Source: a virus. Taken from it: 64,000 nucleotides of DNA. Shown here piece after piece: positions 2,982-63,580 of the stretch. The stretch's first letter is position 1. The number at the start of each line of letters is the position of its first letter. The stretch covers positions 7,706 through 71,705 of IMG/VR virus record IMGVR_UViG_3300020576_004720. The stretch is one strand, 5' to 3'. The position numbers were made by a program, and so were the translations under genes. The notes below the pieces were generated by a model, which worked only from the letters and a program-made list of their open reading frames with translations, was not told where the DNA came from and did no database searches.

Positions 2982-5090
2982 TTAAAATTTGATTTTTACT
3001 GTCCTTTTAAACGAACCCTGTAATTTTACAATGAGTTCATCTCTTACTGTAGCATTGAATCCTAAACCTGACAATTGACCTTTTGTAGATTCAATTGTAT
3101 TAGTAGCTCCTAGTACTTCCAACACTTTACGATGTTGAGCTAATTCAGGAATAAGGTTCTCATTGTGGAAACTTCTTATTGAAATAGGAGATTCGCACCC
3201 TTCAATCATAAAGAAATAATGCTTGTTGCCCACATTATCTTGCCAATGATTTGGTGATAAACAAACTAAGTTCACTTTATGAAACTGATTTGTGTCAAGA
3301 CCATAAATTTCCTTACTGGAAGATGTTTCTGGTAATAGGTGCTCTACTTGGAATACCCCATCTTTAATCGTAACATTAGCAACTTTCACATTGCCAGATA
3401 CTCTACGATCATAAGAGTAGTTATATATCTCACCATTTACCTCTATTTCTGCTTTAAAACCTTGACTGTTTCTTGCAGAGAATTGATTTACCCAGAATTC
3501 ATACTTACCATCTTTCAGTAGATTTCTGTCCTTGAAATAGATATTCTCAACAGCTAATCCATGAGGATAAGTATTATCTAAGTCAAGTTGTCCCCCGTAT
3601 TTTGAAAATCTATTTCCGTGGTCTTTTCTGAATCCTGCAGAGTAACCAATACTTTCACCATTAGGTTGTTTACACCAAGCATCCAAATCACTGGTATCTT
3701 GTCCAGTTTCATTCCAAATCATGGAAAATCTCAAAAAGCCATCTATATTTCCACCTTTGGTCTTTACAGCTTCTTTTATCTCTGATTTTCCAGCAAGATT
3801 ACCATTGTATGTCCAAGAATAGTTATTAGACCATTTCATAATAGGTTTACTCTCTTTTACATTTGCTGTGGTAAGTGTAACCATATTACGTTCATGGTTA
3901 TTCTGAAGGAATACCTCTACAGATGTGCAGGAAGGTAGTATATCCTTCATGAATTTATCAATATTGATTTCCTCAATATCTTTAAACTCACTACGTTTAT
4001 GACGAGTGGATGTAGATTTTACACCATCGAACATTGACGTAGCTTTTATCTTACTTTCTGCAGCAATGTGAAGGATTTCAGATGCACGAATATCTGAAAT
4101 TGTAGCCATCCTACGATCAAATGATTCAACATAACCATTTTCCTCAACAAATTTACGAGCTTCCTCAATTTGTTTTTTGGTAATTGGAGCTGTAGCCTTC
4201 ATGTAGTTTACAGGATCTACACGAATATTCCAAGCTTTACATGCTTCATTAAGCTCTTTTCCTTCTGCAAGCTCAGTACACAATACACCAATAAGCTCAT
4301 TTTTGAATTTAGCTATTGGGAGTTTGTATGAAGTTACCCAGCACCAGTTCTCCCTTTTGTCTGCAGATAAAGCATCGTATTGAGCCTTATATGGAATAAA
4401 CTGTTCTACTTTGAACAGGTGAGTTCTTCCATCCAACAAAGAATCTTGGTTAATAAGGTCTTTTACAAGCATTAGTGTATCCATAGGAATCTCCTGCATA
4501 GCTCTTTGAAACACATTCTTAGCATCCCTGTAACTTCCCATCAGTTGTTCTACTGAAGCACCTGACATATCAACATATTCCTTAGGAAGGTCAAGAAATA
4601 AGTGCTCAAAGGTGACAATCTCGTCAGGTTTTACAACACCAAACTTCTCAGCTTCTTCTTTTGTATACCTTTTATGGTTCTTATCAATTCCTAGACGAAA
4701 TACTGAATTTGTCTTTTTACAAGACTCATAAGGGAGAGAATTAAGCTCATCAAAAGTTTCAAAGAAAACATTCTCAATAGATGAAGCTTTGATTTTTTGA
4801 GAAAGCTCTTTTGCTGTATTCTCATACTCTCCTTCAATAATTACGTCAAAAATAGACATAAGATTAAAATTCTCATCCAAAGCAACAATATTTCCATACC
4901 TTCGTATGAAATTGTTACAGAGATTACAGTTATGAACAGAGCTATCAGGATCTCTGAACTTTGGATCTTTTCCAAATGACTGTAAATAAGCATCCCATAC
5001 TTGGGAACCTGTCATTTTTACACGAAACAGCTTTCCAGTTTTGCACATTTTGTCAAACTGCTGCTGTACTTTTTGTTGAAATGATTTCAT
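2982..5090 (-). CDS. large hypothetical protein (702 aa)
   Basis: Long intact ORF. No confident motif assignment. Confidence 0.6.
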   Translation of the reverse strand: MKSFQQKVQQQFDKMCKTGKLFRVKMTGSQVWDAYLQSFGKDPKFRDPDSSVHNCNLCNNFIRRYGNIVALDENFNLMSIFDVIIEGEYENTAKELSQKIKASSIENVFFETFDELNSLPYESCKKTNSVFRLGIDKNHKRYTKEEAEKFGVVKPDEIVTFEHLFLDLPKEYVDMSGASVEQLMGSYRDAKNVFQRAMQEIPMDTLMLVKDLINQDSLLDGRTHLFKVEQFIPYKAQYDALSADKRENWCWVTSYKLPIAKFKNELIGVLCTELAEGKELNEACKAWNIRVDPVNYMKATAPITKKQIEEARKFVEENGYVESFDRRMATISDIRASEILHIAAESKIKATSMFDGVKSTSTRHKRSEFKDIEEINIDKFMKDILPSCTSVEVFLQNNHERNMVTLTTANVKESKPIMKWSNNYSWTYNGNLAGKSEIKEAVKTKGGNIDGFLRFSMIWNETGQDTSDLDAWCKQPNGESIGYSAGFRKDHGNRFSKYGGQLDLDNTYPHGLAVENIYFKDRNLLKDGKYEFWVNQFSARNSQGFKAEIEVNGEIYNYSYDRRVSGNVKVANVTIKDGVFQVEHLLPETSSSKEIYGLDTNQFHKVNLVCLSPNHWQDNVGNKHYFFMIEGCESPISIRSFHNENLIPELAQHRKVLEVLGATNTIESTKGQLSGLGFNATVRDELIVKLQGSFKRTVKIKF

Positions 5091-12043: not shown

Positions 12044-12311
12044 AGTGTTTTATTTTGTTTTTGTTTTTGTTTTGTCAACACACTTTAATATTGGCAGTGT
12101 TGTTCTCCAAATTATTCATAGTTGATTGGATTTCTACCCAAGTTGTTGATTTTCATAGGTTTAGATATGGGGGGTACTAGGCGACTTCTAACTTGACCAA
12201 GCCACCAAATCTATATATCCTCCCCAAAATCACGCATAAAAACAAAAAAAAAATAAAAATTTTTTTAATTTAAAAAGTTAATTTACCTTTGTATCACAAA
12301 ACCAAGATAGT
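12044..12311. promoter_or_regulatory. divergent control region between the leftward and rightward gene blocks
   Basis: No ORF. (TTTTG)n tract at 12046-12070. Long A and T runs at 12240-12280. TACCTTTG (a TAnnTTTG-type -7 element) at 12282-12289, just upstream of the first rightward gene. Confidence 0.5.
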
Positions 12312-12731: not shown

Positions 12732-13390
12732 AAGATCCAAATAGGGAAAGAAAGAATGAAATAAAGTACAATGTTACTTTAAATGATGAACAGAAAGAAG
12801 CTAAAAGATTAATTGTTGAAAATCAAATAGTTATAATTACAGGTAGGGCAGGTTCTGGAAAGTCTCTTGTTGGTGCTCAGACTGCACTGGATTTTCTTAA
12901 TAAGAAGATGTGTGATAAAGTGCTGGTAACCAGAGCAATGATTGAACTGGAGGATGATTCTATGGGATTTCTTCCTGGTTCTAAGAATGAGAAATTTGCG
13001 CCTTATATGGAAGCCTTCAGAGAAAATCTGGAGAAGTGTATAGATAAGGTAAAAGTTCAAGACTTGATTACTGCAGAAAGAATCATCGCTGGTCCTATTA
13101 ATTTCATAAGAGGTAAAACAATTGATGATGTTCTAATAGTTGAAGAAGCTCAAAACTTAACAAGGTTCCAAATGCTTTCTATTCTGACGAGACTTGGAAA
13201 GACAGGAAAGATGATAATAAATGGTGATAATGACCAACAGGATATAAATTTAAAACATGAATCTCAAAATGGTCTGCAATTTGCAATAGAGCTTTCTAAA
13301 AATATTAAAGATATAAAAAGAATAAATCTTAAAGAGAATCATAGGTCAGATCTTGTAGGAAAGATTCTAGACTTTGTTTATAACAAATAA
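12728..13390 (+). CDS. phoH: PhoH-like ATPase
   Basis: Walker A GRAGSGKS and the conserved PhoH core (VLVTRAMIELEDDSMGFLPG...KFAPYM...INGDNDQQD). Confidence 0.85.
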   Translation: MKDPNRERKNEIKYNVTLNDEQKEAKRLIVENQIVIITGRAGSGKSLVGAQTALDFLNKKMCDKVLVTRAMIELEDDSMGFLPGSKNEKFAPYMEAFRENLEKCIDKVKVQDLITAERIIAGPINFIRGKTIDDVLIVEEAQNLTRFQMLSILTRLGKTGKMIINGDNDQQDINLKHESQNGLQFAIELSKNIKDIKRINLKENHRSDLVGKILDFVYNK

Positions 13391-36079: not shown

Positions 36080-36511
36080 ATGGCATACTATAAATATACG
36101 TGGGAAAAACTAGAAAATACTAGTTACCCTATAATAAAAATAAAATCAGTATTATTAGATTCTACTGAGAAAAATTTTGTTGACAAATATTTTCCTTTCG
36201 ATAGTTCAAAAAAAATAGGTAATGCTATTAATGATCTAAATGATTCAGATATAAGTGCTGTTACATATAGAACTGTATCGGATTCTAATAAAGTAATACA
36301 TGAACTTGTTGTTGATATAGTACCTTTAGTTACAACTACAATGCTAAAGTTAGGTTATAGTGATATTGTAGATGATTCGAATTTATATATAGTTGGAGAA
36401 CTTATTTCATATCCTCCTATAAATCATACTATATTTAGTACATGTTCACCAATAATAACAACAACGACTACTACAACTAGTACAACAACGACTACTACTG
36501 TAGCACCTTAA
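36080..36511 (+). CDS. hypothetical protein with a C-terminal poly-Thr tail
   Basis: ORF ending in TTTTTSTTTTTTVAP. Confidence 0.45.
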   Translation: MAYYKYTWEKLENTSYPIIKIKSVLLDSTEKNFVDKYFPFDSSKKIGNAINDLNDSDISAVTYRTVSDSNKVIHELVVDIVPLVTTTMLKLGYSDIVDDSNLYIVGELISYPPINHTIFSTCSPIITTTTTTTSTTTTTTVAP

Positions 36512-37560: not shown

Positions 37561-37590
37561 TGACCCTTGTTCTCAAGGGTCTTTTTTTAA
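37561..37590 (+). terminator. rho-independent terminator
   Basis: GACCCTTG-TTCT-CAAGGGTC followed by TTTTTTT. Confidence 0.7.
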
Positions 37591-37618
37591 AATAAATTTG
37601 GAAAATATAAAAACATTT
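37581..37618 (+). promoter_or_regulatory. promoter (AAATAAATTTGG - 20 nt - TATATTTG), family copy 1
   Basis: Matches the Bacteroidetes sigma-A consensus: -33 TTTG, -7 TAnnTTTG. Confidence 0.55.
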
Positions 37619-37637
37619 CGTATATTTGTATTCCAAA

Positions 37638-37682
37638 ACAGATTACTATGGCTTGTGGCTGTGGAAAACCTAAACCCAAACC
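37638..37682 (+). CDS. tiny ORF (14 aa, MACGCGKPKPKPKK); candidate leader peptide
   Basis: First ATG after promoter copy 1. Translated by hand. Confidence 0.25.
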
Positions 37683-37686
37683 TAAA

Positions 37687-37764
37687 AAATAAAAATATGT
37701 GGTTTATATTTGGAATCCTTTTAGGATTTTTTATAGGTAAAAATTTTGATAAGATCAAAGACTT
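37687..37764 (+). CDS. tiny hydrophobic ORF (25 aa, MWFIFGILLGFFIGKNFDKIKDLIL)
   Basis: Second short ORF between promoter copy 1 and the terminator at 37886. Confidence 0.3.
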
Positions 37765-37885
37765 AATTTTATGAAAAATAACTTTACACATACATGGCAA
37801 CCCACAACCCAGTGTCCATTTGGCATCTGCGAGGGTCTATGTATATGTATTAAAAAGTAAGCTTTTATTTTTTCCGATTCATACA

Positions 37886-37915
37886 CAAACCCTCAATAAC
37901 ATGAGGGTTTTTTAT
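37886..37915 (+). terminator. rho-independent terminator
   Basis: CCCTCA-ATAACA-TGAGGG followed by TTTTTTATTTT. Confidence 0.65.
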
Positions 37916-37961
37916 TTTATGGCGATGTAGGGAAGTCAGGTTTTTCCCACTAGCTTTGGGA

Positions 37962-38003
37962 TAAAAATAAATTTGGAAGTTCGAAAACTTTTTACTATAT
38001 TAG
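37962..38003 (+). promoter_or_regulatory. promoter family copy 2 (TTTG - 20 nt - TATATTAG) with an embedded hairpin AAGTT-CGAAA-ACTT
   Basis: Same AAATAAATTTGG leader as copy 1. It ends 4 nt before the ATG of HNH-1, so the mRNA is probably leaderless. Confidence 0.5.
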
Positions 38004-38007
38004 TAGT

Positions 38008-38571
38008 ATGAAAGTAAGTTTAATATGTCCTGTTTGTAAATCTAAATTTGAAAAGGAAGAGAAATATATAAATTTTAGTATCAAAAAAGATTGGAAAATT
38101 TATTGTTCAAATGAATGTAAGCATATAGGAAAAGCAAAAGAATATAATTATAAATGTGCAAATTGTGGTAAAGATTTGATAGTTACTCCTAGTAGAATTA
38201 AAAGGTCTAAAACAGGAAATTTATATTGTAGTAAAAAGTGTTCGACTATAAAAAACAATACTCTTTTTAAAAAATGGGAAAATCATCCTCAATATAAAAC
38301 TGGTATAGGTAGTTATAGATGGATAAAGATAAAATCAATGAAGGAATTAAAATGTGAGGAATGTAATTTTGATAACCCTTTAGCTTTAGAAGTTCATCAT
38401 AAAGATAGAAATAGAAAAAATAATAATCTTGATAACTTACAACTACTTTGTTGTAATTGTCATACAATAAAGCATAAAACAGGTAGTGGGCTAATTGGTA
38501 AGCCGCCACATTTGGGATGTGGACATCATGCAGAATCGTCCTCTGTCTACCTGACACAAAAGATTGAATAA
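38008..38571 (+). CDS. HNH homing endonuclease (HNH-1), with N-terminal Cys-rich zinc fingers
   Basis: LEVHHKDRNRKNNNLDNLQLLCCNCHTIKH (HNH motif) and CPVCKSKF...C...C. Confidence 0.8.
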   Translation: MKVSLICPVCKSKFEKEEKYINFSIKKDWKIYCSNECKHIGKAKEYNYKCANCGKDLIVTPSRIKRSKTGNLYCSKKCSTIKNNTLFKKWENHPQYKTGIGSYRWIKIKSMKELKCEECNFDNPLALEVHHKDRNRKNNNLDNLQLLCCNCHTIKHKTGSGLIGKPPHLGCGHHAESSSVYLTQKIE

Positions 38572-38625
38572 TTTAAGCGACTAAGTTATAAAATAGATGG
38601 TTCGAATCCATTCATTGCCACATAG

Positions 38626-38700
38626 GTCCATATGGCTGAGAGGTCAAAAGCAACAATCTGCAAAATTGTAAAACCGTTGGTTCAAATCCAACTATGGACT
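38626..38700 (+). tRNA. tRNA-Cys (GCA)
   Basis: Acceptor GTCCATA/TATGGAC, anticodon stem ACAAT/ATTGT with loop CTGCAAA, T-arm GTTGG-TTCAAAT-CCAAC. Confidence 0.75.
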
Positions 38701-38706
38701 CTAAAT

Positions 38707-38780
38707 GCCTCCTATGCAGATATGGTGCTGCGTCTGCCTTGTAAGCAGAAATAGAGAGTTTTCGAGTAACTCAGGAGGAT
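38707..38780 (+). tRNA. tRNA-Thr (TGT)
   Basis: D-arm GCAG/CTGC, anticodon stem TCTGC/GCAGA with loop CTTGTAA, T-arm GAGTT-TTCGAGT-AACTC. Positions 1 and 72 are a G-A mismatch. Confidence 0.65.
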
Positions 38781-38786
38781 CTAAAA

Positions 38787-38860
38787 GGTAACTAAGCAAT
38801 TGTTGGTCAATGCATCTGTTTGAAGAACAGACTAACTCAGTTCGAACCTGAGAGTTACCA
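38787..38860 (+). tRNA. tRNA-Phe (GAA)
   Basis: Acceptor GGTAACT/AGTTACC, anticodon stem TCTGT/ACAGA with loop TTGAAGA, T-arm CTCAG-TTCGAAC-CTGAG. Confidence 0.8.
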
Positions 38861-38865
38861 CAGAT

Positions 38866-38936
38866 ACCTCGTTGGTGTAATGGTAGCACAAGAGCTTCCA
38901 AACCTCTTGGAACCTTTTCGATTAGGGTACGAGGTG
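38866..38936 (+). tRNA. tRNA-Trp (CCA)
   Basis: Acceptor ACCTCGT/ACGAGGT, anticodon loop TTCCAAA (one C-C mismatch at the base of the anticodon stem), T-arm ACCTT-TTCGATT-AGGGT. Confidence 0.65.
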
Positions 38937-38959
38937 CAGGATACTGGATGAAGAAAAAT

Positions 38960-39032
38960 TCCAATATGGGGTAATTGGTAACCCGACTGACTTTGATTCA
39001 GTAGATTCTAGGTTCGAACCCTAGTATTGGAT
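38960..39032 (+). tRNA. tRNA-Gln (TTG)
   Basis: Acceptor TCCAATA/TATTGGA, anticodon stem ACTGA/TCAGT with loop CTTTGAT, T-arm CTAGG-TTCGAAC-CCTAG. Confidence 0.8.
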
Positions 39033-39034
39033 CT

Positions 39035-39107
39035 GGTGGTTATAGCTTAATGGTAGAGCGGTACATTGTGGCTGTATTATGTGAGGGTTCGAGTCCCTTT
39101 AATCACC
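39035..39107 (+). tRNA. tRNA-His (GTG), with G-1
   Basis: Acceptor GTGGTTA/TAATCAC preceded by an extra G that pairs with C73. Anticodon loop TTGTGGC. T-arm GAGGG-TTCGAGT-CCCTT. Confidence 0.75.
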
Positions 39108-39114
39108 CTGTAAA

Positions 39115-39187
39115 CCACTTTTAGTTAAACTGGAAATAACCTTTGACTACGGATCAAAAATTATCTGTTCGAATCAGATAAAGTGGT
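39115..39187 (+). tRNA. tRNA-Arg (ACG)
   Basis: Acceptor CCACTTT/AAAGTGG, anticodon stem TTTGA/TCAAA with loop CTACGGA, T-arm ATCTG-TTCGAAT-CAGAT. Confidence 0.75.
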
Positions 39188-39390
39188 CAAAAATATATAT
39201 CTTTGTAGTATGAGAAATATCACACTTTATACTGGAGTTGGTGGTTATATAATGTTTCAAGAGTCATTAGAACAAATAACTCTTGGGACTAGAAGAGTAT
39301 ATATAGGCAAAAAGGTCCCTAGAATACTAAGAAAAGTTCATAAGAAAATAGAAAAAGCAGAAAACGGAAAATATTTTTTTAGAACAAAAA

Positions 39391-39428
39391 AATAAATTTG
39401 GATTTTTAAAAAATACATTGTATATTTG
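39391..39428 (+). promoter_or_regulatory. promoter family copy 3 (AAATAAATTTGG - 20 nt - TATATTTG)
   Basis: Exact consensus. Confidence 0.55.
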
Positions 39429-39457
39429 CACTAATTAAAAGTTATAGACATTCACAA

Positions 39458-39544
39458 ATGCAATCTTTAAATATCATAGCGATGGTGAAAGGTAATATTG
39501 AGGATAGAAACTCAATAGGGTTTGTGTTGTCTTTCTGTAAGTGA
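39458..39544 (+). CDS. candidate leader peptide (28 aa, MQSLNIIAMVKGNIEDRNSIGFVLSFCK) upstream of the Lys-Val-Arg-Asn-Met...Gly-Glu-Asp-Ile tRNA array
   Basis: Short ORF between promoter copy 3 and the terminator at 39567-39600. Codons AAA/AAG, GTG, AGA, AAT/AAC, ATG, GGG/GGT, GAG, GAT and ATC/ATT/ATA correspond to the downstream tRNAs. Confidence 0.35.
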   Translation: MQSLNIIAMVKGNIEDRNSIGFVLSFCK

Positions 39545-39566
39545 GAGTTAAGAAAATAAAATACAC

Positions 39567-39600
39567 AAGCCCTTCCCAAAAAGAAGGGCTTTTTTATTTC
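39567..39600 (+). terminator. rho-independent terminator / attenuator immediately 5' of tRNA-Lys
   Basis: AAGCCCTTC-CCAAAAA-GAAGGGCTT followed by TTTTTATTTC. tRNA-Lys starts at the next base. Confidence 0.65.
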
Positions 39601-39674
39601 TCCTCTTAACTCAGTTGGCTAGAGTAGTAAACTTTTAATTTACGAGTCGTGGGTTCGAGTCCCTCAGGGGAGAC
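39601..39674 (+). tRNA. tRNA-Lys (TTT)
   Basis: Acceptor CTCCTCT/AGGGGAG with a G-U pair, D-arm ACTC/GAGT, anticodon stem GTAAA/TTTAC with loop CTTTTAA, T-arm GTGGG-TTCGAGT-CCCTC with one U-U mismatch. Confidence 0.7.
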
Positions 39675-39679
39675 ATATA

Positions 39680-39752
39680 GAGGATTAACTCAGTTGGCAG
39701 AGTGCTTGTATTACAAACAAGAAGTCAGGATCTCGGAATTCCTATCCTCTAC
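39680..39752 (+). tRNA. tRNA-Val (TAC), non-canonical T-loop
   Basis: Acceptor AGAGGAT/ATCCTCT, anticodon stem CTTGT/ACAAG with loop ATTACAA. T-arm AGGAT-CTCGGAA-TTCCT lacks the usual TTC. Confidence 0.6.
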
Positions 39753-39757
39753 ACAAG

Positions 39758-39830
39758 TCCTTGTAACTCAACGGATAGAGTATTTGCCTTCTAAGCAAAA
39801 AGTTGTAAGTTCGATTCTTACCAAGGATAC
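39758..39830 (+). tRNA. tRNA-Arg (TCT)
   Basis: Acceptor GTCCTTG/CAAGGAT, anticodon stem TTTGC/GCAAA with loop CTTCTAA, T-arm GTAAG-TTCGATT-CTTAC. Confidence 0.75.
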
Positions 39831-39871
39831 AGGTGGGTTACCTTTCCCCGTGGAGTTAAAAAAGGAGATGT

Positions 39872-39945
39872 GGGAAGTTAGCTCATGTTGGTAGAGCAAA
39901 TGACTGTTAATCATTAGGTGAAGGGATCGTCACCCTTACTTCCCT
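39872..39945 (+). tRNA. tRNA-Asn (GTT), unusual T-loop ATCGTCA
   Basis: Acceptor GGGAAGT/ACTTCCC, D-arm GCTC/GAGC, anticodon stem AATGA/TCATT with loop CTGTTAA, T-stem AAGGG/CCCTT. Confidence 0.7.
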
Positions 39946-39950
39946 CATAA

Positions 39951-40022
39951 TGTGAGGTAATGCAGCGGTAGCAGAAAAGGCTCATACCCTTTTAGTCGGG
40001 AGTTCGAATCTCCCCCTCGCAA
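39951..40022 (+). tRNA. tRNA-Met (CAT)
   Basis: Acceptor TGTGAGG/CCTCGCA, anticodon stem AAAGG/CCTTT with loop CTCATAC, T-arm GGGAG-TTCGAAT-CTCCC. Confidence 0.75.
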
Positions 40023-40046
40023 CAGAAAAATTACTATCTTTGCAAT

Positions 40047-40511
40047 ATGGAAAAATATTTTCGGACACAAGATGGTAAAATAGTAAATATCATCGAACAT
40101 ACGCTAGATCAGATTGAAAAATTCAATCATCTAGAAATATCTATCGGAACAGATAGTCAAGACTGGGGACAAGATACCGTTTATGTAACTTGTATAGCTT
40201 ATAGATATGGAAGAAGAGGTGCTCATTTTATTTACTTAAAAGAAGTTGTATCAAGAATAAAAGATTTTAGTCAATTTACAAGATTATATGGAGAAGGATT
40301 AAGAACTCTTGAAATACATGATACTTTGACTCAAGATATCCCTATTGCTGTTAAAGCTTTGGAATTTGATTTTGCAGATGCAAAGAAAACTATAAGTTCT
40401 AAATTAGTTTCTGCGTTTAAAGGTTATGCAAACTCAACTTTTAAAACTGGAGAAATGATAGCATGTAAGGCTGCAGATCACGTCATAAGACACCCTTCTG
40501 TATATAAATAA
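40047..40511 (+). CDS. hypothetical protein (154 aa) embedded in the tRNA island; weak RNase H-like/DUF458-like GTDSQ motif
   Basis: ORF. ISIGTDSQDWGQDTVYVTCIAY is the only suggestive motif. Confidence 0.45.
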   Translation: MEKYFRTQDGKIVNIIEHTLDQIEKFNHLEISIGTDSQDWGQDTVYVTCIAYRYGRRGAHFIYLKEVVSRIKDFSQFTRLYGEGLRTLEIHDTLTQDIPIAVKALEFDFADAKKTISSKLVSAFKGYANSTFKTGEMIACKAADHVIRHPSVYK

Positions 40512-40634
40512 GTGTTACTGATGTACACAGTGTCGTAGTCCCTCTTAAGCCTCTGATTCAAGCTCAAATGAAGAGTGTAATCGTAAAGTACACATAGTTA
40601 ATAGGTTCTATCGGGCGTACAAAAACCTAAACCT

Positions 40635-40708
40635 GCAGTAGTAGTTCAATTGGTAGAATGCCGTCCTTCCAAGTCGGAGGTTTGCAAGTTCGAGTCTTGT
40701 CTACTGCA
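40635..40708 (+). tRNA. tRNA-Gly (TCC)
   Basis: Acceptor GCAGTAG/CTACTGC, D-arm GTTC-AATTGGTA-GAAT, anticodon loop CTTCCAA, T-arm GCAAG-TTCGAGT-CTTGT. Confidence 0.7.
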
Positions 40709-40711
40709 CAT

Positions 40712-40785
40712 GCCATGTTTGACTAGCGGTCTAGGTCAACACTCTTTCACGGTGTTATTCATGGGTTCGAATCCCATACATGGTA
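40712..40785 (+). tRNA. tRNA-Glu (TTC)
   Basis: Acceptor GCCATGT/ACATGGT with G1-U72, anticodon stem ACACT/GGTGT with loop CTTTCAC, T-arm ATGGG-TTCGAAT-CCCAT. Confidence 0.75.
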
Positions 40786-40789
40786 CTAA

Positions 40790-40864
40790 CGCCTATTAGG
40801 GGAGTTGGTCGTCCCTGTTCCTCTGTCTAAGGAAAGATCCTCGGTTCGAATCCGTGATAGGCGA
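40790..40864 (+). tRNA. tRNA-Asp (GTC)
   Basis: Acceptor CGCCTAT/ATAGGCG, D-stem GGGG/CCCT, anticodon stem TTCCT/AGGAA with loop CTGTCTA, T-arm CTCGG-TTCGAAT-CCGTG. Confidence 0.7.
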
Positions 40865-40867
40865 CAT

Positions 40868-40944
40868 GCTGATGTATCCTCTCTGGCTTATATCCAGTTG
40901 AAAAGGTAGTTGGTTACACATTAGTTCGAATCTAATCATCAGTA
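40868..40944 (+). tRNA. irregular tRNA-like gene (77 nt), possible tRNA-Ile(TAT)-like; D-arm missing or displaced
   Basis: Acceptor GCTGATG/CATCAGT and T-arm ATTAG-TTCGAAT-CTAAT are clear. The only anticodon-like hairpin is CTGG-CTTATAT-CCAG, which gives TAT. A D-loop-like GTAGTTGGTTAC sits where the variable region should be. Confidence 0.4.
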
Positions 40945-40947
40945 CAA

Positions 40948-40984
40948 AATAAATTTGATAAATTCGAACTTTTATCTTATATTG
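40948..40984 (+). promoter_or_regulatory. promoter family copy 4 (TTTG - 20 nt - TATATTG) with an embedded TTCGAAC hairpin; drives HNH-2
   Basis: AAATAAATTTGATAAATTCGAACTTTTATCTTATATTG is homologous to the HNH-1 promoter region. Confidence 0.5.
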
Positions 40985-41004
40985 TATATATAAAGTATAC
41001 AATA

Positions 41005-41550
41005 ATGGTTAAAAAGACAAAAATTTTGGAACTTTTTCATAAAGGATTTAGTTCTGCTGAAATATCTAAACAGTTAAGATGCTCTAAATCAACAGTAAGT
41101 TATCATTGTTCAAAATTTATTAACAAAGTTGATAAATATACACCTGAATTATTAAAAATATATCAGGATGCTTATGATCAAGGATTATCTTTTAAAGGTG
41201 TTGCTGATAAATTTAAAGTATCAAGACAATTATTAGGTAAAAAATTAAAAGCAAGAAAACTTACAAAACTTCAAATTAAACAAAAAGCTGACAAAAGAAA
41301 AAAAGGCTATAGGTTAAAAGTAAAAGAACAATGTGTAGAATATAAAGGAGGGAAATGTTGTAAATGTGGATATAATAAATGTCTTGCTGCTTTAGAATTT
41401 CATCATATTGATCCTAATAAAAAAGATTATACTATAAGTGGTGGAACTAAAAGTTTTCAAAACTTAAAGTCTGAATTAGATAAATGTATTTTAGTGTGTA
41501 AAAATTGTCATGCAGAGATACATTTTCAAATAATTAATAATGACTTGTAG
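41005..41550 (+). CDS. HNH homing endonuclease (HNH-2) with an N-terminal helix-turn-helix
   Basis: LEFHHIDPNKKDY...CKNCHAEIH (HNH motif) and AEISKQLRCSKSTVSYH (HTH-like). Confidence 0.8.
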   Translation: MVKKTKILELFHKGFSSAEISKQLRCSKSTVSYHCSKFINKVDKYTPELLKIYQDAYDQGLSFKGVADKFKVSRQLLGKKLKARKLTKLQIKQKADKRKKGYRLKVKEQCVEYKGGKCCKCGYNKCLAALEFHHIDPNKKDYTISGGTKSFQNLKSELDKCILVCKNCHAEIHFQIINNDL

Positions 41551-41613
41551 CTCAAATGGTAGAGCGTTACACTGATAATGTAAAGGTAGTGAGATCGTTA
41601 CTCACCAAGTCAA
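41541..41613 (+). tRNA. tRNA-Ile (GAT), overlapping the last 10 nt of HNH-2
   Basis: Acceptor TGACTTG/CAAGTCA, D-arm GCTC-AAATGGTA-GAGC, anticodon stem TTACA/TGTAA with loop CTGATAA, T-arm GTGAG-ATCGTTA-CTCAC. Confidence 0.75.
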
Positions 41614-41770
41614 CTAAGGGGGTGCATGTTCCAAGGCTGGCGAAGTAGTTTTGCAAACTATTTGAGAAGATTTCGATTATCTTCATCTCCACAAAATAAA
41701 TTTTGGAAGAAAAAAGAAAAGTTGTATTTTTGCCTTGGTTTTTATAGGCATCATTGTCACGGAATAGAAA

Positions 41771-41805
41771 GTCCTTCTAGAAATAGAAGGATTTTTTATT
41801 TTGAC
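41771..41805 (+). terminator. rho-independent terminator
   Basis: AGTCCTTCTA-GAAA-TAGAAGGATT followed by TTTTTATTTT. Confidence 0.65.
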
Positions 41806-42178
41806 TAATATCCCTTATTTTTGCCAAAAGGTTTTTTCCAACTTTTATCCTTTAGCACAATAAAAGTTATCTATTAAAACTAGTATGAAAGTAACTAATT
41901 CATACGATAGGATGTATAAATATCAAGCAATGTCTATCCGTGACAACTTGTACCTGCAAGAAAAAACCAAGTAGGCTAAAATACATTCCTCCGTGAAAAT
42001 ATAAAGTCCTCATAATCAACAGCCTACATGGTGAAAAGATGAGGCACAGGGACACGGGAGTTTTAGGTTAGATGAGTCTATCTAAATGCTTGAAGATAGA
42101 AACCCTACTTGCAGGGATAAACGGAGGTGTGTTTGGTAATATCAGAAATATTTAGTATATTATAATAAAAGTATAAAA

Positions 42179-43978
42179 ATGGCAATATATTACGTAGATT
42201 CCAGTTACACTGGTTCAACATCTAATGGTGGTATAAATACACCTTGGAAGTCTCTATCAAATGTAAATTCAAATATGAGTTTACTTCAACCTGGAGACCA
42301 AGTCTTATTAAAAAGAGGACAGAGTTATTCAGGAACTCTAAATATAACAAGATCTGGTAATTCATCAGCAAGAATTATTTTTGGTGCATATGGAACAGGG
42401 GCACAACCTAAATTATTAGGTACAGGTGCATCTATTAATGTTCTTATATCTATGTATAATAGATCATATATTACACTGCAAGACTGGACTATAGTAGATG
42501 AGTCTATATCTGCAGTAGATAGAACAATACAGGCAAAAATTCAAAGAGCTATTGTTCCAGATTCATCTACTAATATTACTATTACAAGATGTAATTTTGA
42601 TAGAACTGGTTGTGCGTTGTATACTACTGGTGATAATACAACTTTTACATATTCTACAGTACAGAATATGAGGATGATTAAAAACACCAAAGATGGTCCG
42701 CCTCCCGGAAATGATGATGACTATGGTGCTAATGGTGTAATTATATCTTCTTCTAATAATATTATTACAAATAATATATTTGAAGGGTGTTGGGCAGATT
42801 CATATGATTATGAATATGATGGTGGAGCAGTAGATATTTACGCTGATGTAGATTGTAGTAATAACCTTATAGCATACAATAGTTTTAATGATTGCAATGG
42901 TGTTATTGAAATTGGTGGTTCAGGTGGACGTACTGTAACCGGAACTGTATTAGCATACAATAAATGTACAAATAATGGGTCTTTTATGTATGTGAGTAAT
43001 TCAGGCACTTTTGCTACAAATGTAATTAATACAAGTATACTTAATAATGTTATTGTCGAAACTCAACCATTTAGAGTATCAAGTAATGCAATGATAGGAT
43101 ATAAGAGCACTCCTACTACAGCAGCTACTTTAACTGTAAAGAATAATATATTTCAATTATATGGTACTGTAGATGTCTATAGAGCACAGTGGAATAATAC
43201 TACTCTTATTCATGAAAATAATGTATACAAATTAAATACATCAGGAACAGGTTCATTATTAAATATTACAGCAAACCCTAGTGAGATTGTAACAAGTGCT
43301 AACTTTTGGACCTCAACTTCAGGAAATGCAAAAGATTGGAACTTCTCTCCTTTAGTTGGCAGTGTATTAATAAATGCAGGAACAAATGTGGGGTACTCTG
43401 TAGATTTTGCAGGTGTTGCTGTTAGTAATCCTCCTGAAATAGGTATTTTAGAATATGTTGCTGGTACAACAACTACTACAAGTTCTACTTCAAGTACAAG
43501 TAGTACAAGTACAACTTCTACTTCAAGTACAAGTACAACTACAACTACAACTTTAGTTCCTACTACAACAACTACTACTTCAAGTACATCAACAACATCA
43601 ACAAGTAGTACAACTACCACTAGTTCAACAACTACAACTACAAGTTCTAGTACAACTACGACTACAACTATAAATGAACCTATTCAAGGAACTATTTCTT
43701 TATCAGGAACATTACCAAGAAGAAGAGTTTCAAATATTTGTTGGAATATAAATACAAATGTACCTGTAGTAAAATATATTGAAAGAATGACAAATAATGT
43801 ATTTACAACTATTTACACTATTCCTGGTGGTTATAGTACTACAGCATCTAACTGTAGGGATATCAAATTAAGTTTAACCATTAATACTTTTAGAATTAAA
43901 GTAGTAGATAGTTATGGAAATATAAAATACTCTCAGACTATAAGTTATAATAATCAGGGATTTTTAATAGATGTTTAA
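42179..43978 (+). CDS. tailspike / polysaccharide-depolymerase-like protein (right-handed parallel beta-helix + Ser/Thr-rich linker + C-terminal domain)
   Basis: Repeated NxxIxxNxF-type pectate-lyase-fold repeats (ITITRCNFDRTGCALYTTGDN..., IISSSNNIITNNIFEGCW...). About 70-aa linker made only of Thr/Ser. Confidence 0.55.
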   Translation: MAIYYVDSSYTGSTSNGGINTPWKSLSNVNSNMSLLQPGDQVLLKRGQSYSGTLNITRSGNSSARIIFGAYGTGAQPKLLGTGASINVLISMYNRSYITLQDWTIVDESISAVDRTIQAKIQRAIVPDSSTNITITRCNFDRTGCALYTTGDNTTFTYSTVQNMRMIKNTKDGPPPGNDDDYGANGVIISSSNNIITNNIFEGCWADSYDYEYDGGAVDIYADVDCSNNLIAYNSFNDCNGVIEIGGSGGRTVTGTVLAYNKCTNNGSFMYVSNSGTFATNVINTSILNNVIVETQPFRVSSNAMIGYKSTPTTAATLTVKNNIFQLYGTVDVYRAQWNNTTLIHENNVYKLNTSGTGSLLNITANPSEIVTSANFWTSTSGNAKDWNFSPLVGSVLINAGTNVGYSVDFAGVAVSNPPEIGILEYVAGTTTTTSSTSSTSSTSTTSTSSTSTTTTTTLVPTTTTTTSSTSTTSTSSTTTTSSTTTTTSSSTTTTTTINEPIQGTISLSGTLPRRRVSNICWNINTNVPVVKYIERMTNNVFTTIYTIPGGYSTTASNCRDIKLSLTINTFRIKVVDSYGNIKYSQTISYNNQGFLIDV

Positions 43979-44016
43979 AATAAATTTGGTTTTTGTAAAT
44001 TATTATACTATATTTG
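43979..44016 (+). promoter_or_regulatory. promoter family copy 5 (AAATAAATTTGG - 20 nt - TATATTTG)
   Basis: Exact consensus. The ATG of the leader ORF lies 5 nt downstream. Confidence 0.55.
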
Positions 44017-44020
44017 CATC

Positions 44021-44092
44021 ATGAAAAATAACAAACTATATAGTTCCTTATCGTATCTCTTACAAAGTAAGAGCAGGGATTATATTGTTTAA
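44021..44092 (+). CDS. candidate leader peptide (23 aa, MKNNKLYSSLSYLLQSKSRDYIV) of the Leu-Leu-Ser-Ser-Tyr tRNA operon
   Basis: 12 of 23 codons are Leu/Ser/Tyr (CTA, TTA x2, CTC, TAT x3, AGT x2, AGC, TCC, TCG). This matches the five downstream tRNAs. A terminator follows 25 nt after the stop. Confidence 0.4.
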   Translation: MKNNKLYSSLSYLLQSKSRDYIV

Positions 44093-44117
44093 AAATAATT
44101 ATATTGTTTACAATAAA

Positions 44118-44149
44118 ACCCTGCCAATTTTGGTGGGGTTTTTCTTTTT
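44118..44149 (+). terminator. rho-independent terminator / attenuator abutting tRNA-Leu
   Basis: ACCCTGCCAA-TT-TTGGTGGGGT (10-bp stem with two G-U pairs) followed by TTTTTCTTTTT. tRNA-Leu starts at the next base. Confidence 0.65.
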
Positions 44150-44235
44150 GGGGATGTGGTGGAATTGATAGACACCCTAGACTTAGGATCTAGTGTTAAT
44201 AAACTGGCGTGAGAGTTTGAATCTCTCCATCCCTA
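44150..44235 (+). tRNA. tRNA-Leu (TAG), type II with long variable arm
   Basis: 86 nt. Acceptor GGGGATG/CATCCCT, anticodon stem CTAGA/TCTAG with loop CTTAGGA, T-arm GAGAG-TTTGAAT-CTCTC. Confidence 0.7.
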
Positions 44236-44240
44236 CAAAT

Positions 44241-44314
44241 GGTCTAGTAAGCTAACTGGGAAAGCTATAAAACTTAAAATTTTATGTTTGTGAGTTCGAA
44301 TCTCACCTAGACTA
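44241..44314 (+). tRNA. tRNA with anticodon TAA (Leu UUA) but short type I architecture (74 nt)
   Basis: Acceptor GGTCTAG/CTAGACT, anticodon stem TAAAA/TTTTA with loop CTTAAAA, T-arm GTGAG-TTCGAAT-CTCAC. Variable region is only 5 nt. Confidence 0.6.
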
Positions 44315-44318
44315 CAAT

Positions 44319-44405
44319 GGTAAGGTGCTCAAGTGGTCATAAGAGCCTCGCTTTGAAAGCCTGTGTGATGTAAAAGTCCCGTGGGTTCGAATCCCACCCT
44401 TGCCT
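44319..44405 (+). tRNA. tRNA-Ser (TGA), type II
   Basis: 87 nt. Acceptor GGTAAGG/CCTTGCC, anticodon loop TTTGAAA (imperfect stem), 17-nt variable arm, T-arm GTGGG-TTCGAAT-CCCAC. Confidence 0.6.
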
Positions 44406-44410
44406 CAAAT

Positions 44411-44494
44411 GGAGAGTTGCAGGAATTGGTAAACTGTTCTGTTTGCTAAACAGAAGATGTAAAAGTCGCAAGAGTTCGAATCTTGTACTCTCCT
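44411..44494 (+). tRNA. tRNA-Ser (GCT), type II
   Basis: 84 nt. Acceptor GGAGAGT/ACTCTCC, anticodon stem TCTGT/ACAGA with loop TTGCTAA. Its 15-nt variable arm resembles that of the neighbouring Ser tRNA. Confidence 0.65.
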
Positions 44495-44504
44495 CATAAT
44501 CAAT

Positions 44505-44576
44505 GGGATAGAAAGCAGGGCACTTAGCAACGTCTGTAAAACGTAGGCTCGTGAGTTTCGAGTACTCCCTATCCCA
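44505..44576 (+). tRNA. tRNA-Tyr (GTA)-like, short (72 nt) with a weak D-arm
   Basis: Acceptor GGGATAG/CTATCCC, anticodon stem ACGT/ACGT with loop CTGTAAA, T-arm TGAGT-TTCGAGT-ACTCC. No long variable arm. Confidence 0.5.
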
Positions 44577-44675
44577 CTTTTTCTTTTTATCATCTAATGA
44601 TTAAATATTGTTTACTTCAATAATTAATGTAAAAAATTATTTTTTTATATGAATACTTTTTCATAATTTTGTATT

Positions 44676-45308
44676 ATGATAGATTCAGATTTAAAAAGAT
44701 GTGGAGTTTATAAAATTACAAACTTAAAAAATAATAAGGTATATATCGGTAGTACTACAAAAACATTATATAGTAGAAAAAGGTCCCATTTTTTAAAATT
44801 AAAAAATAATATTCATTTCAATACACATCTTCAGTTGTCATTTAATAAATATGGCGAGAATTTCTTTACATTTGAAATATTGGCAATATGTAAAGAAGAA
44901 CATACAGTAATATTAGAAAATTTCTTTATTAAATTATACTCTTCGCATTTAAAAGATAAAGGTTATAATATGGCTATTCCATTAGAATTACCAGTTCCAA
45001 ATATTTCAAATAAAGGTAAAAAATTTTCTGAAGATCATAAAGAGAAAATATCATATTCATTAAAAAGAAATTGCTATTGGAAAAATAAAAAACAGCCTCA
45101 ATCTATGATCTCTAAAAGATCTGAAAAAAATAAAAAACTTATTCAACAAATATGTAAAAGTACTGGTAAAATTTTAAATACCTGGAGTTTTGAAGAAGCC
45201 AAGAAGAATGGTTATTATCCTTCTGCTGCTAGAAATTATATACAGGGCAAGAGAAAGTCTTATAAAGGATTTGATTGGAAAATAATAAAAAAATTATATG
45301 ATAAGTAA
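44676..45308 (+). CDS. GIY-YIG homing endonuclease
   Basis: GVYKITNLKNNKVYIGSTT (GIY-...-YIG) near the N-terminus. Confidence 0.75.
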   Translation: MIDSDLKRCGVYKITNLKNNKVYIGSTTKTLYSRKRSHFLKLKNNIHFNTHLQLSFNKYGENFFTFEILAICKEEHTVILENFFIKLYSSHLKDKGYNMAIPLELPVPNISNKGKKFSEDHKEKISYSLKRNCYWKNKKQPQSMISKRSEKNKKLIQQICKSTGKILNTWSFEEAKKNGYYPSAARNYIQGKRKSYKGFDWKIIKKLYDK

Positions 45309-63535: not shown

Positions 63536-63580
63536 AAGATTAATTGGAAATCATACAATTAATCAATATCTTTGTAGTTT

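Follow-up and report, generated by a model that had tools for sequence, protein, structure and literature searches.

We analysed a stretch of 64,000 nucleotides (nt) of the IMG/VR virus record IMGVR_UViG_3300020576_004720 (hereafter the window; all positions refer to it), in which six promoter-like sites, P1 to P6, accompany a large island of tRNA genes. The window is part of a crAss-like phage and carries CrAss_Ring_1 and CrAss_Ring_2 domains and tail proteins together with terminase and portal PHROGs of the crAss type. It is quite likely that the six sites are promoters of the host primary-sigma type (Bacteroidota sigma-A) and that three of them, P1, P3 and P6, drive ribosome-mediated attenuators of tRNA arrays. 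In each of these three units a short open reading frame (ORF), whose amino acids match the tRNA genes downstream, is followed by an intrinsic terminator, and in its 3' part the ORF carries a complement of the terminator's 5' arm.

Promoter sites of the tRNA island

The exact 12-mer AAATAAATTTGG occurs four times in the window, starting at positions 37590, 37965, 39390 and 43978, and two further copies differ from it by one mismatch (40947, ending in TTTGA, and 41694, ending in TTTTG). All six copies are intergenic, lie on the plus strand between 37590 and 44016, and are directed towards the genes 3' of them. The observed numbers are far above those in dinucleotide-preserving shuffles, both for the exact 12-mer (4 observed, 0.10 expected) and for the composite pattern AAATAAATTTG-N19-21-TAnnTT (5 observed, 0.01 expected). 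The TTTG element is present in all six copies, and the spacer between it and the -7 box is 20 nt long in five of them and 19 nt at 41694. The -7 box is an exact TAnnTTTG at 37621, 39421, 41725 and 44009; it has one mismatch in P2 (37996, TATATTAG) and two in P4 (40978, TATATTGT). The initial annotation of this DNA had listed five promoters with a 20-base-pair spacing. The family proves to be real, and the five copies and their spacing stand; the sixth copy at 41694, with its shorter spacer, had been missed, and the positions were 1-9 nt off.

The -33 TTTG and the -7 TAnnTTTG are the two elements of the sigma-ABfr consensus (Bayley et al. 2000, summarised in PMC7366714), in agreement with the earlier assignment of the sites to a Bacteroidetes-type promoter. 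The copies in the window additionally have an A-rich upstream block, AAAATAAA, and a conserved G after TTTG. There are 13 strict TTTG-N17-23-TAnnTTTG sites in the window, and among these the A-rich block is found only at the promoter copies of the tRNA island, while the bare TAnnTTTG shows no overall enrichment (118 observed, 97±11 expected). Apart from the consensus positions the spacers of the copies are unrelated, and hence the copies are not simple duplications.

Relatives of the phage were drawn from a protein database, contig look-ups and one metagenome scan. In a megablast search against GenBank phages we observed only tRNA-sized matches and no close DNA relatives, and a single-protein IMG/VR search with the Ring-2 protein gave no match. 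Homologues of the Ring-2 protein (50-66% identity) were found on contigs of 150-170 kb; for the relatives that have the motif in a syntenic island the protein identity is about 50-57%. The 10 kb upstream of the Ring-2 gene of the relatives contain the same tRNA island in the same order as in the window (Pro Thr Cys Phe Trp Gln His Arg; Lys Lys Val Arg Arg Asn Met; Gly Glu Asp; Ile Ile Ala; Leu Leu Leu Ser Ser Tyr), and the aaaataaaTTTGG-N19-TATATTTG sites of the island are kept, although the flanks have diverged.

We also scanned public collections with the pattern AAATAAATTTG(G)-N19-21-TATATTTG. At least 120 viral contigs contain it; among the matches listed, the spacer is 20 nt long in 98 of 130, and G follows TTTG in 71%. 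In bacterial genomes the extended pattern was found in at least 120 stretches, and 75 of the 80 listed titles belong to Bacteroidota; a host tRNA gene starts 12-32 nt downstream of the pattern in 9 of the 122 genome matches listed. As the pattern is widespread in Bacteroidota genomes and in unrelated phages, it represents a generic strong host promoter rather than a phage-private signal, and the proposal that the sites define a distinct regulon is not supported, the identical extended string being present in both collections. The promoter family is thus an ordinary one, a host consensus promoter of a type already described for crAss-like phages. Its sites resemble the sigma-ABfr promoters in both elements, in the spacing of 19-20 nt, in the near restriction to one phylum and in the position directly upstream of host tRNA genes; they differ in the added A-rich block and the G after TTTG, in lying in a phage, and in being known here from sequence.

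A published counterpart is found in phage phi14:2. Its early genes are transcribed by an injected virion polymerase and have no common motif, whereas middle and late transcription is rifampicin-sensitive and has been attributed to the host polymerase (Drobysheva et al., bioRxiv 10.1101/2020.03.07.982082; Nature 2021). According to the same study, the middle genes have an extended tripartite motif with blocks resembling -35 and -10 elements, a similar motif is located upstream of a tRNA gene at least once in 12 of the 14 crAss-like phages scanned, and promoters of the middle type are also used in vitro by the Escherichia coli sigma-70 holoenzyme. We compared the upstream regions directly and found the A-rich block, (T)TTG, a spacer of about 20 nt and TAnnTTTG at the phi14:2 promoters P070, P075, P108 and P110; a further site of the window, at 39198, shares TATCTTTGTAGTATG with P110, being identical over 15 nt. 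The two systems thus have in common the host phylum, the multi-block -35/-10-like motif, its frequent location upstream of tRNA genes and, presumably, the dependence on the host polymerase. The lineage of the window differs from that of phi14:2 in being another crAss-like lineage, with genomes of about 155-170 kb, and the phi14:2 study, which places the motif in front of tRNA genes, describes neither leader ORFs nor attenuators. The virion RNA-polymerase motif DFDxD was not found in the large proteins lying within the window. We infer the transcription start sites and the temporal class of P1-P6; by analogy with phi14:2, the promoter units of the tRNA island probably belong to the middle class. 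Of the earlier guess of a middle or late class, it is the middle one that agrees with the host-polymerase middle promoters of phi14:2, and it does so by analogy only.

Two other explanations of the motif were considered. If it marked a phage-specific regulon, read via a phage-encoded factor or polymerase and not by the unmodified host holoenzyme, one could point to the restriction of the extended motif to the tRNA island within the window, to the structural genes, which lack it and share another upstream motif, AAAACCAAGA, and to the A-rich block, unusually well kept among the relatives. However, Bacteroidota chromosomes contain many copies of this same 19-base pattern, some of them immediately in front of host tRNA genes, and so do many unrelated phages; each conserved position falls on the known sigma-ABfr consensus; and the phi14:2 promoters of this design are used by the host polymerase and, in vitro, even by the E. 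coli holoenzyme. We consider such a regulon very unlikely. The copies could also be repeat scars left by recombination or by mobile cassettes, such as homing-endonuclease insertions or cassette boundaries: two of them are situated upstream of mobile HNH genes, and P5 and P6 flank a stretch of about 2.2 kb that is absent at this junction in the relative L244 and could be a duplication. On the other hand, the similarity is limited to the consensus promoter positions, the orientation and the distance to the start codons downstream are promoter-like, and the motif is kept at syntenic sites of the relatives; repeat scars are therefore hardly credible, and we retain host-type promoters as the explanation of the six sites.

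Leader ORFs, terminators and the proposed attenuation

Leader 1 (37771..37860, plus strand as all features of the island given below; MKNNFTHTWQPTTQCPFGICEGLCICIKK) has the core FTHTWQPTTQCPF, which consists only of the amino acids of array 1, and precedes the tRNA genes for Pro, Cys, Thr, Phe, Trp, Gln and His. In the core of Leader 2 (39458..39544; MQSLNIIAMVKGNIEDRNSIGFVLSFCK), NIIAMVKGNIEDRN, each of the ten amino acids served by arrays 2-4 is represented (K, V, R, N, M, G, E, D, I and A), and the core of Leader 3 (44021..44092; MKNNKLYSSLSYLLQSKSRDYIV), LYSSLSYLL, precedes Leu, Leu, Ser, Ser and Tyr. The three leader sets jointly cover all 20 amino acids, partitioned in the same way as the tRNA arrays. 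The earlier observation that the promoters precede short leader units with terminators, as well as two HNH genes, next to the tRNA arrays thus holds, and comparison with other phages now supports the leader/attenuator label.

The match recurs in the relatives. The proteins of the phage itself (12,973 amino acids), read in windows of 14 residues, served as a control. In Leader 1, seven or eight of the eight set members occur within 14 amino acids in all six phages, whereas 0.023% of the proteome windows reach seven; in Leader 2, nine or ten of the ten set members occur in all eight phages, and again 0.023% of the proteome windows reach ten. Leader 3 contains pure L/S/Y runs of 6-11 residues in nine phages of nine, the longest such run in the phage's proteins being 5. 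The order of the residues varies among the phages (e.g. MIVRNILGADEK, NMIVDRINAGGNEK and NIIGIVMEADRK), which argues that selection acts on composition and not on a folded peptide. Across the leaders we observed synonymous codon swaps, switches between the Ser and Leu codon families (AGT CTC TTG vs TCG TTA TTG) and 3-nt indels, the conservation being at the amino-acid level. As judged from the codon-family switches and the 3-nt indels, the leader ORFs would be translated. Their codons are also biased towards those rare in the phage (CTC, TCC, TCG, TTG, ACG, GCG, GGG; z = -6.3, -10.9 and -10.2). A search of IMG/VR with a degenerate DNA pattern of the Leader-3 element yielded chance matches only.

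The correspondence between leaders and arrays holds in three further phage lineages, where the tRNA genes are grouped differently. In L092, a 233-kb IMG/VR phage contig, MKKTYTYYQPKTQ (TYTYYQPKTQ) is followed by a terminator and then by Pro Pro Gln Gln Gln Tyr Thr, and in a second unit of the same contig ILVLCLCVLVL is followed by a terminator and by Cys, three Val and six Leu genes. In L034, FDFNIEAAEADF stands before Asp Asp, a tRNA without assigned identity, and Ala Phe Phe Glu. In the cultured Cellulophaga phage phi17:2, a TTTG-N20-TATGTTTGccaaATG site starts a unit with MKIQRLHLQELEQP (QRLHLQELEQP), a terminator and Pro Glu Gln His Leu Leu Arg, while the annotated gp077 (TGITVIDKTKGARAYLGDTVIG; TGITVID, GARAY and DTVIG) precedes a terminator and Ala Ile Gly Met Asp Thr Val Arg Met Tyr. 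When eight leaders were scored against eight arrays, every leader was best on its own array, and only one of the 40,320 permutations, the identity, reached the cognate sum. It seems reasonably likely that the large tRNA arrays of Bacteroidota phages (the lineage of the window, L092, and the phi17:2/phi4:1 type) are governed by multiplexed leader-peptide attenuators, each made of a host-type promoter, an array-specific sampler mini-ORF and a terminator/antiterminator switch. Separately, the leaders at 6977-7066 of L250 and on the reverse strand of L092 (about 13060-13160 in reverse-complement coordinates) have the ending EEDDCK before the stop codon in common, although the two phages are otherwise different; this suggests that they share a leader module at the 3' end or an RNA element.

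A GC-rich hairpin with a T run is located 0-10 nt upstream of the first tRNA gene of an array and recurs across the relatives. In the window, terminators 2 (39567..39591) and 3 (44115..44142) adjoin their arrays, with tRNA-Lys beginning 8 nt later, at 39600, and tRNA-Leu 7 nt later, at 44150. Terminator 1 (37887..37910; AAACCCTCA-ataaca-TGAGGGTTT, then a T run) does so in the relatives, where the equivalent hairpin adjoins tRNA-Pro in L244, L248, L249 and L377. In the helix of the Leader-3 terminator, four of the ten pairs show compensatory changes.

The 3' part of each leader, region 2, is complementary to the 5' arm of its own terminator; in the window these segments are CGAGGGTC (37830-37837), TAGGGTTTG (39516-39524) and AGAGCAGGGA (44070-44079) for Leaders 1, 2 and 3, respectively. 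In the relatives the segment covaries with the terminator, as in GTCAGGG/CCCTGAC, GCTAGGAT/ATCCCTAGC and GGAGAAGG/CCCTTCTC. The cognate leader-terminator duplexes are stronger than those with the arms of other phages (168, 10 and 8 of 20,000 permutations for Leaders 1, 2 and 3). These values come from alignment-free energies of cognate and non-cognate pairs, where the automatic finder placed the terminators of two Leader-2 units (L249, L377) wrongly, an error that lowers rather than raises the apparent signal; a column-wise count of antiterminator covariation was dropped, since the pairing register shifts between the sequences in the MAFFT alignment. The distance from the end of region 2 to the stop codon is 1-28 nt in the 21 units for which the terminator was assigned correctly. 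In about 12 of 21 units, the nascent RNA that still lacks the 3' arm has the antiterminator as its minimum-free-energy fold. In Leader 3 there is also a covarying hairpin just 5' of region 2, without clear sequestration of the latter. In Rfam 15, tRNA alone passes the gathering threshold, and no known leader, riboswitch or small RNA was detected at either the gathering or permissive thresholds; the matches to the Phe, Thr and rnk leaders reach 20-28 bits, where 55 would be required, and are confined to the terminators.

These data are consistent with the following scheme. The host sigma-A polymerase would start at the P sites, and the ribosome would load on a short or absent 5' untranslated region (UTR). 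P2 and P4 would express the inserted HNH genes and, by read-through, the tRNAs behind them, while P1, P3 and P6 would drive the short leader ORFs, each followed by its intrinsic terminator. With fast decoding, a ribosome that has arrived at the stop codon would mask region 2, the terminator would form, and only a short leader RNA would be made. If, vice versa, the ribosome stalls at a sampler codon because the charged cognate tRNA is scarce, region 2 would pair with the 5' arm of the terminator, allowing for read-through into the tRNA array. The outcome would be a homeostatic supply of phage tRNAs, tRNA genes being controlled by the logic of trp and his attenuation, extended here to 3-10 amino acids at a time. 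The tRNA island would then be a set of self-contained units driven by the host polymerase inside the late structural module. Regulated read-through is our second inference here; as far as the sequences tell, the P1, P3 and P6 units are probably ribosome-mediated attenuators of tRNA arrays.

Several observations weigh against this scheme. The set of Leader 2 makes up 58% of ordinary protein composition, and therefore the evidence from this leader rests on its coverage of ten residues and not on the fraction. No clear 1:2 "anti-antiterminator" hairpin could be established in the leader units, and the antiterminator is the optimal fold in only slightly more than half of the units, as given above. 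The -7 boxes of P2 and P4 are degenerate, there is no recognisable leader behind P5, and neither a leader nor a terminator could be convincingly assigned to the third array of phi17:2 (Ser, Asn, Trp, Phe). In the window, the HNH-1 cassette with its own promoter separates attenuator 1 from array 1, and internal promoters (at 40035, and P4) could bypass attenuator 2 for arrays 3-4.

Some of the data could also be explained by real promoters in front of ORFs that encode functional micro-proteins, or of transcripts that act as small RNAs, the hairpins being plain terminators or 3' stabilisers and the tRNAs being produced by unregulated read-through and RNase P without any sensing. Indeed, the Cys-rich C-terminus of Leader 1, CEGxCxC, is conserved, which could point to a function of the peptide itself, and two more small conserved proteins are encoded in the P1 operon; LVLCLCVLVL of L092 resembles a signal peptide; and codon/anticodon matching is no better than the background, as, relative to the phage's genes, the leader codons are not enriched for those read by the phage anticodons. 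On the other hand, the composition of the leader tracks the tRNA set 3' of it in eight of eight distinct modules from four lineages without conservation of the residue order, and rare codons are strongly enriched in the leaders. The conserved codons of CEG (GAGGG) and GSG (GGCTCTGGG) coincide and covary with the terminator-pairing strand, and they may be conserved because this strand pairs with the terminator arm. As for the P6 and P3 transcripts being small structured RNAs, which was considered in view of their conserved 5' part and covarying hairpin, this variant was rejected as the main reading, since the codon-family switches, the 3-nt indels and the conservation at the amino-acid level contradict it. 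We therefore regard control without sensing as rather unlikely, and attenuation by the translating ribosome as the preferred reading of the three units.

Layout of the island and its mobile genes

P1 (37590..37628; AAATAAATTTGG-N19-TATATTTG) is situated directly 3' of the terminator (37562-37581) of a tail-fibre-like gene. It has positional orthologues in L244 (3175) and L246 (1451), and the same motif is found in L248 (2096). Between P1 and Leader 1 there are two small ORFs, both present in L244, L246, L248 and L377: one (37648-37692; MACGCGKPKPKPKK) with the invariant core GCGCGKPKP, and one (37697-37774; MWFIFGILLGFFIGKNFDKIKDLIL) for a membrane-like hydrophobic peptide of 25 amino acids. 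The Pro/Lys-rich stretch of the GCGCGKPKP peptide could be a further translational sensor.

Terminator 1 is followed by the 5' half of a tRNA-Pro pseudogene (37921..37963), which, by comparison with tRNA-Pro at 38480-38555, ends at the anticodon loop (TTTGGGATA). Then comes P2 (37965..38003), the promoter of the HNH-1 homing-endonuclease gene (38008..38571; PF01844), with the ATG 5 nt downstream of its -7 box and GGAAGTTCGAAAAC in the spacer. The 3' end of this gene runs through tRNA-Pro, the first gene of array 1 (38480..39188; Pro(tgg), Cys(gca), Thr(tgt), Phe(gaa), Trp(cca), Gln(ttg), His(gtg), Arg(acg)). The half-gene marks the insertion of the HNH-1 cassette between attenuator 1 and array 1; in L387 an HNH gene occupies the same place.

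Array 1 is followed by a promoter consisting of a -7 box only, TATCTTTGtagtATG, with a basic ORF of 61 amino acids (39198..39395; ORF at 39210-39395), and by P3, the Leader 2 promoter (39390..39428), which has equivalents in L244 (4417), L248 (3066), L249 (1189), L377 and L387. Array 2 (39600..40023) comprises Lys(ttt), a tRNA detected by Rfam at 39679-39751, Arg(tct), Asn(gtt) and Met(cat). Behind it are another -7-only promoter, TATCTTTGcaatATG, and a gene for an RNaseH-like protein (40035..40511; gene at 40047-40511; PF04308), which is kept between the Met and Gly tRNA genes in the window, L242, L244, L248, L249 and L250; a role of this protein in tRNA processing is conceivable. Array 3 (40635..40944) contains Gly(tcc), Glu(ttc), Asp(gtc) and a weak tRNA (40868-40944; Rfam 30.6 bits), which is probably Ile(tat), judging by synteny.

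P4 (40947..40985; AAATAAATTTGA, with AAATTCGAAC in the spacer) is the promoter of the HTH-HNH-2 gene (41005-41550), which overlaps tRNA-Ile(gat) at 41541-41614; a tRNA-Ala(tgc)-like sequence, recognised by eye, completes this block (41618-41693; the block spans 41005..41693). On the plus strand, no terminator is predicted between 39592 and the P5 terminator at 41772, and arrays 2-4 thus form one unit. Four tRNA or tRNA-like genes have no ARAGORN call: those at 39679-39751 and 40868-40944, which were found by Rfam only, the tRNA-Ala-like sequence, also without an Rfam call, and a tRNA-Tyr(gta)-like gene at 44505-44578, found by nhmmer similarity to the tRNA-Tyr of the relatives.

P5 (41694..41791; AAATAAATTTTG-N-TATTTTTG) is predicted to give a transcript of about 40 nt, ending at the terminator at 41772-41791; the transcript has no ORF and no conservation in the relatives. 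At the P5 position L244 has a promoter-like AAATAAATTTGG site, with Leader 3 directly after it. The P5 terminator is followed by a non-coding stretch of about 380 nt with a higher G+C content (41694-42178 region), upstream of an ORF of 599 amino acids; neither an Rfam match nor conservation among the relatives examined was observed for this stretch. Two tail-fibre-like proteins beside the island (36080-36511 and 42179-43978) have long Thr/Ser-rich linkers (TTTTTSTT). P6, the Leader 3 promoter (43978..44016; -7 box at 44009-44016), lies 5 nt before the ATG, a leaderless-type arrangement. Array 5 (44150..44578) consists of Leu(tag), Leu(taa), Ser(tga), Ser(gct) and the tRNA-Tyr-like gene, and is followed by a -7-only promoter, TAATTTTGtattATG, with a GIY-YIG endonuclease gene (44664..45308; gene at 44676-45308).

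The -7-only boxes (TATCTTTG, TAATTTTG) are found 5 nt upstream of the ATG of the 61-residue ORF, the RNaseH-like gene and the GIY-YIG gene (39198, 40035 and 44664), and also at 63567. Such a distance implies, as far as it can be read from the sequence, leaderless or near-leaderless mRNAs. Outside the island, AAAACCAAGA is situated 5-7 nt before the ATG at 12299, 26209 and 29196 (plus strand), that is, at the first gene of the plus-strand block and at two genes in the capsid-gene region; AAACCAAGW has 8 matches in the window against 2.65 expected, and AAAACCAAGA could be a late-gene 5'-UTR, translation or promoter signal. In L246 there is a tRNA with a CTA anticodon at 3451-3523 (an amber suppressor, labelled "Pyl" by ARAGORN), which hints at stop-codon recoding in part of the lineage; the window itself shows no sign of such recoding.

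The TTCGAA-centred hairpin in the spacers of the two HNH promoters had been suggested to be an operator, and this suggestion is not supported. TTCGA(A) occurs in the spacer of 5 of the 11 HNH promoters across the relatives (two in the window and one each in L387, L244 and L249), it resembles the generic preference of unrelated phage promoters for TT(C/A)AAA one base downstream, and the two HNH proteins of the window share the nuclease motif only, one of the HNH families having no other DNA-binding domain. HNH genes are repeatedly located directly upstream of a tRNA gene, with the 3' end of the ORF entering the tRNA (twice in the window; L387 2440, L378 565, L244 5273, L249 2028), which suggests, at the level of sequence arrangement, that tRNA genes may be homing targets of the HNH endonucleases. 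The tRNA gene cluster of phage T4 reportedly contains the free-standing homing endonuclease SegB. Free-standing homing-endonuclease genes are thus found among phage tRNA genes in both cases, but the enzymes of the window are of the HNH and GIY-YIG types and have host-type promoters of their own, and one of them stands beside half of a tRNA-Pro gene.

Known attenuators and implications

Ribosome-mediated attenuation is established for amino-acid operons and pheST (the trp, his, leu, thr, ilv and phe leaders; general model in PMC1183508). The system proposed here differs in that the regulated genes are tRNA arrays and not enzymes, and the leaders sample 3 to 10 amino acids, each once or a few times, instead of a run of one; it is also phage-borne, is found in Bacteroidota, and has no evident 1:2 hairpin. 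In mycobacteria, leaderless polycysteine short ORFs serve as Cys-responsive attenuators (bioRxiv 10.1101/834739). As would be the case here, a leaderless or near-leaderless short ORF right behind the promoter is the translation sensor, but that system responds to one amino acid, belongs to another phylum and has protein-coding operons as its targets.

A further comparison is offered by T-box riboswitches. These recognise uncharged tRNA by direct binding, work without translation, and control genes for aminoacyl-tRNA synthetases and for amino acids. In T-boxes, as in the scheme proposed here, scarcity of charged tRNA raises the expression of translation-supply genes via a terminator/antiterminator choice; no T-box was found in the window by Rfam. 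A literature search of incomplete coverage returned nothing on leader-peptide or attenuation control of phage tRNA genes. We know of no leader-peptide attenuation of tRNA arrays and of no attenuator that samples many amino acids at once, and hence, if the proposed reading is true, these would be the first known tRNA genes under ribosome-mediated attenuation and the first multi-amino-acid attenuator.

Units of this architecture are found in a phage that is in culture together with its host (phi17:2 and Cellulophaga baltica), which makes the idea directly testable, and, if correct, the leader units would provide compact, programmable codon-sensing parts for the engineering of Bacteroidota. The results bear on the reasons for the presence of tRNA genes in phages and on the control of such genes. 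If the attenuators operate as proposed, the phage would gauge the decoding capacity of its host and turn on its own tRNAs when decoding falters, and such faltering could stem from codon-usage mismatch, host shut-off or tRNA-cleaving defence systems. The leader units would then constitute a feedback sensor of translational capacity, which would bear on the adaptation of phages to host codon usage and on the evasion of tRNA-targeting defences.

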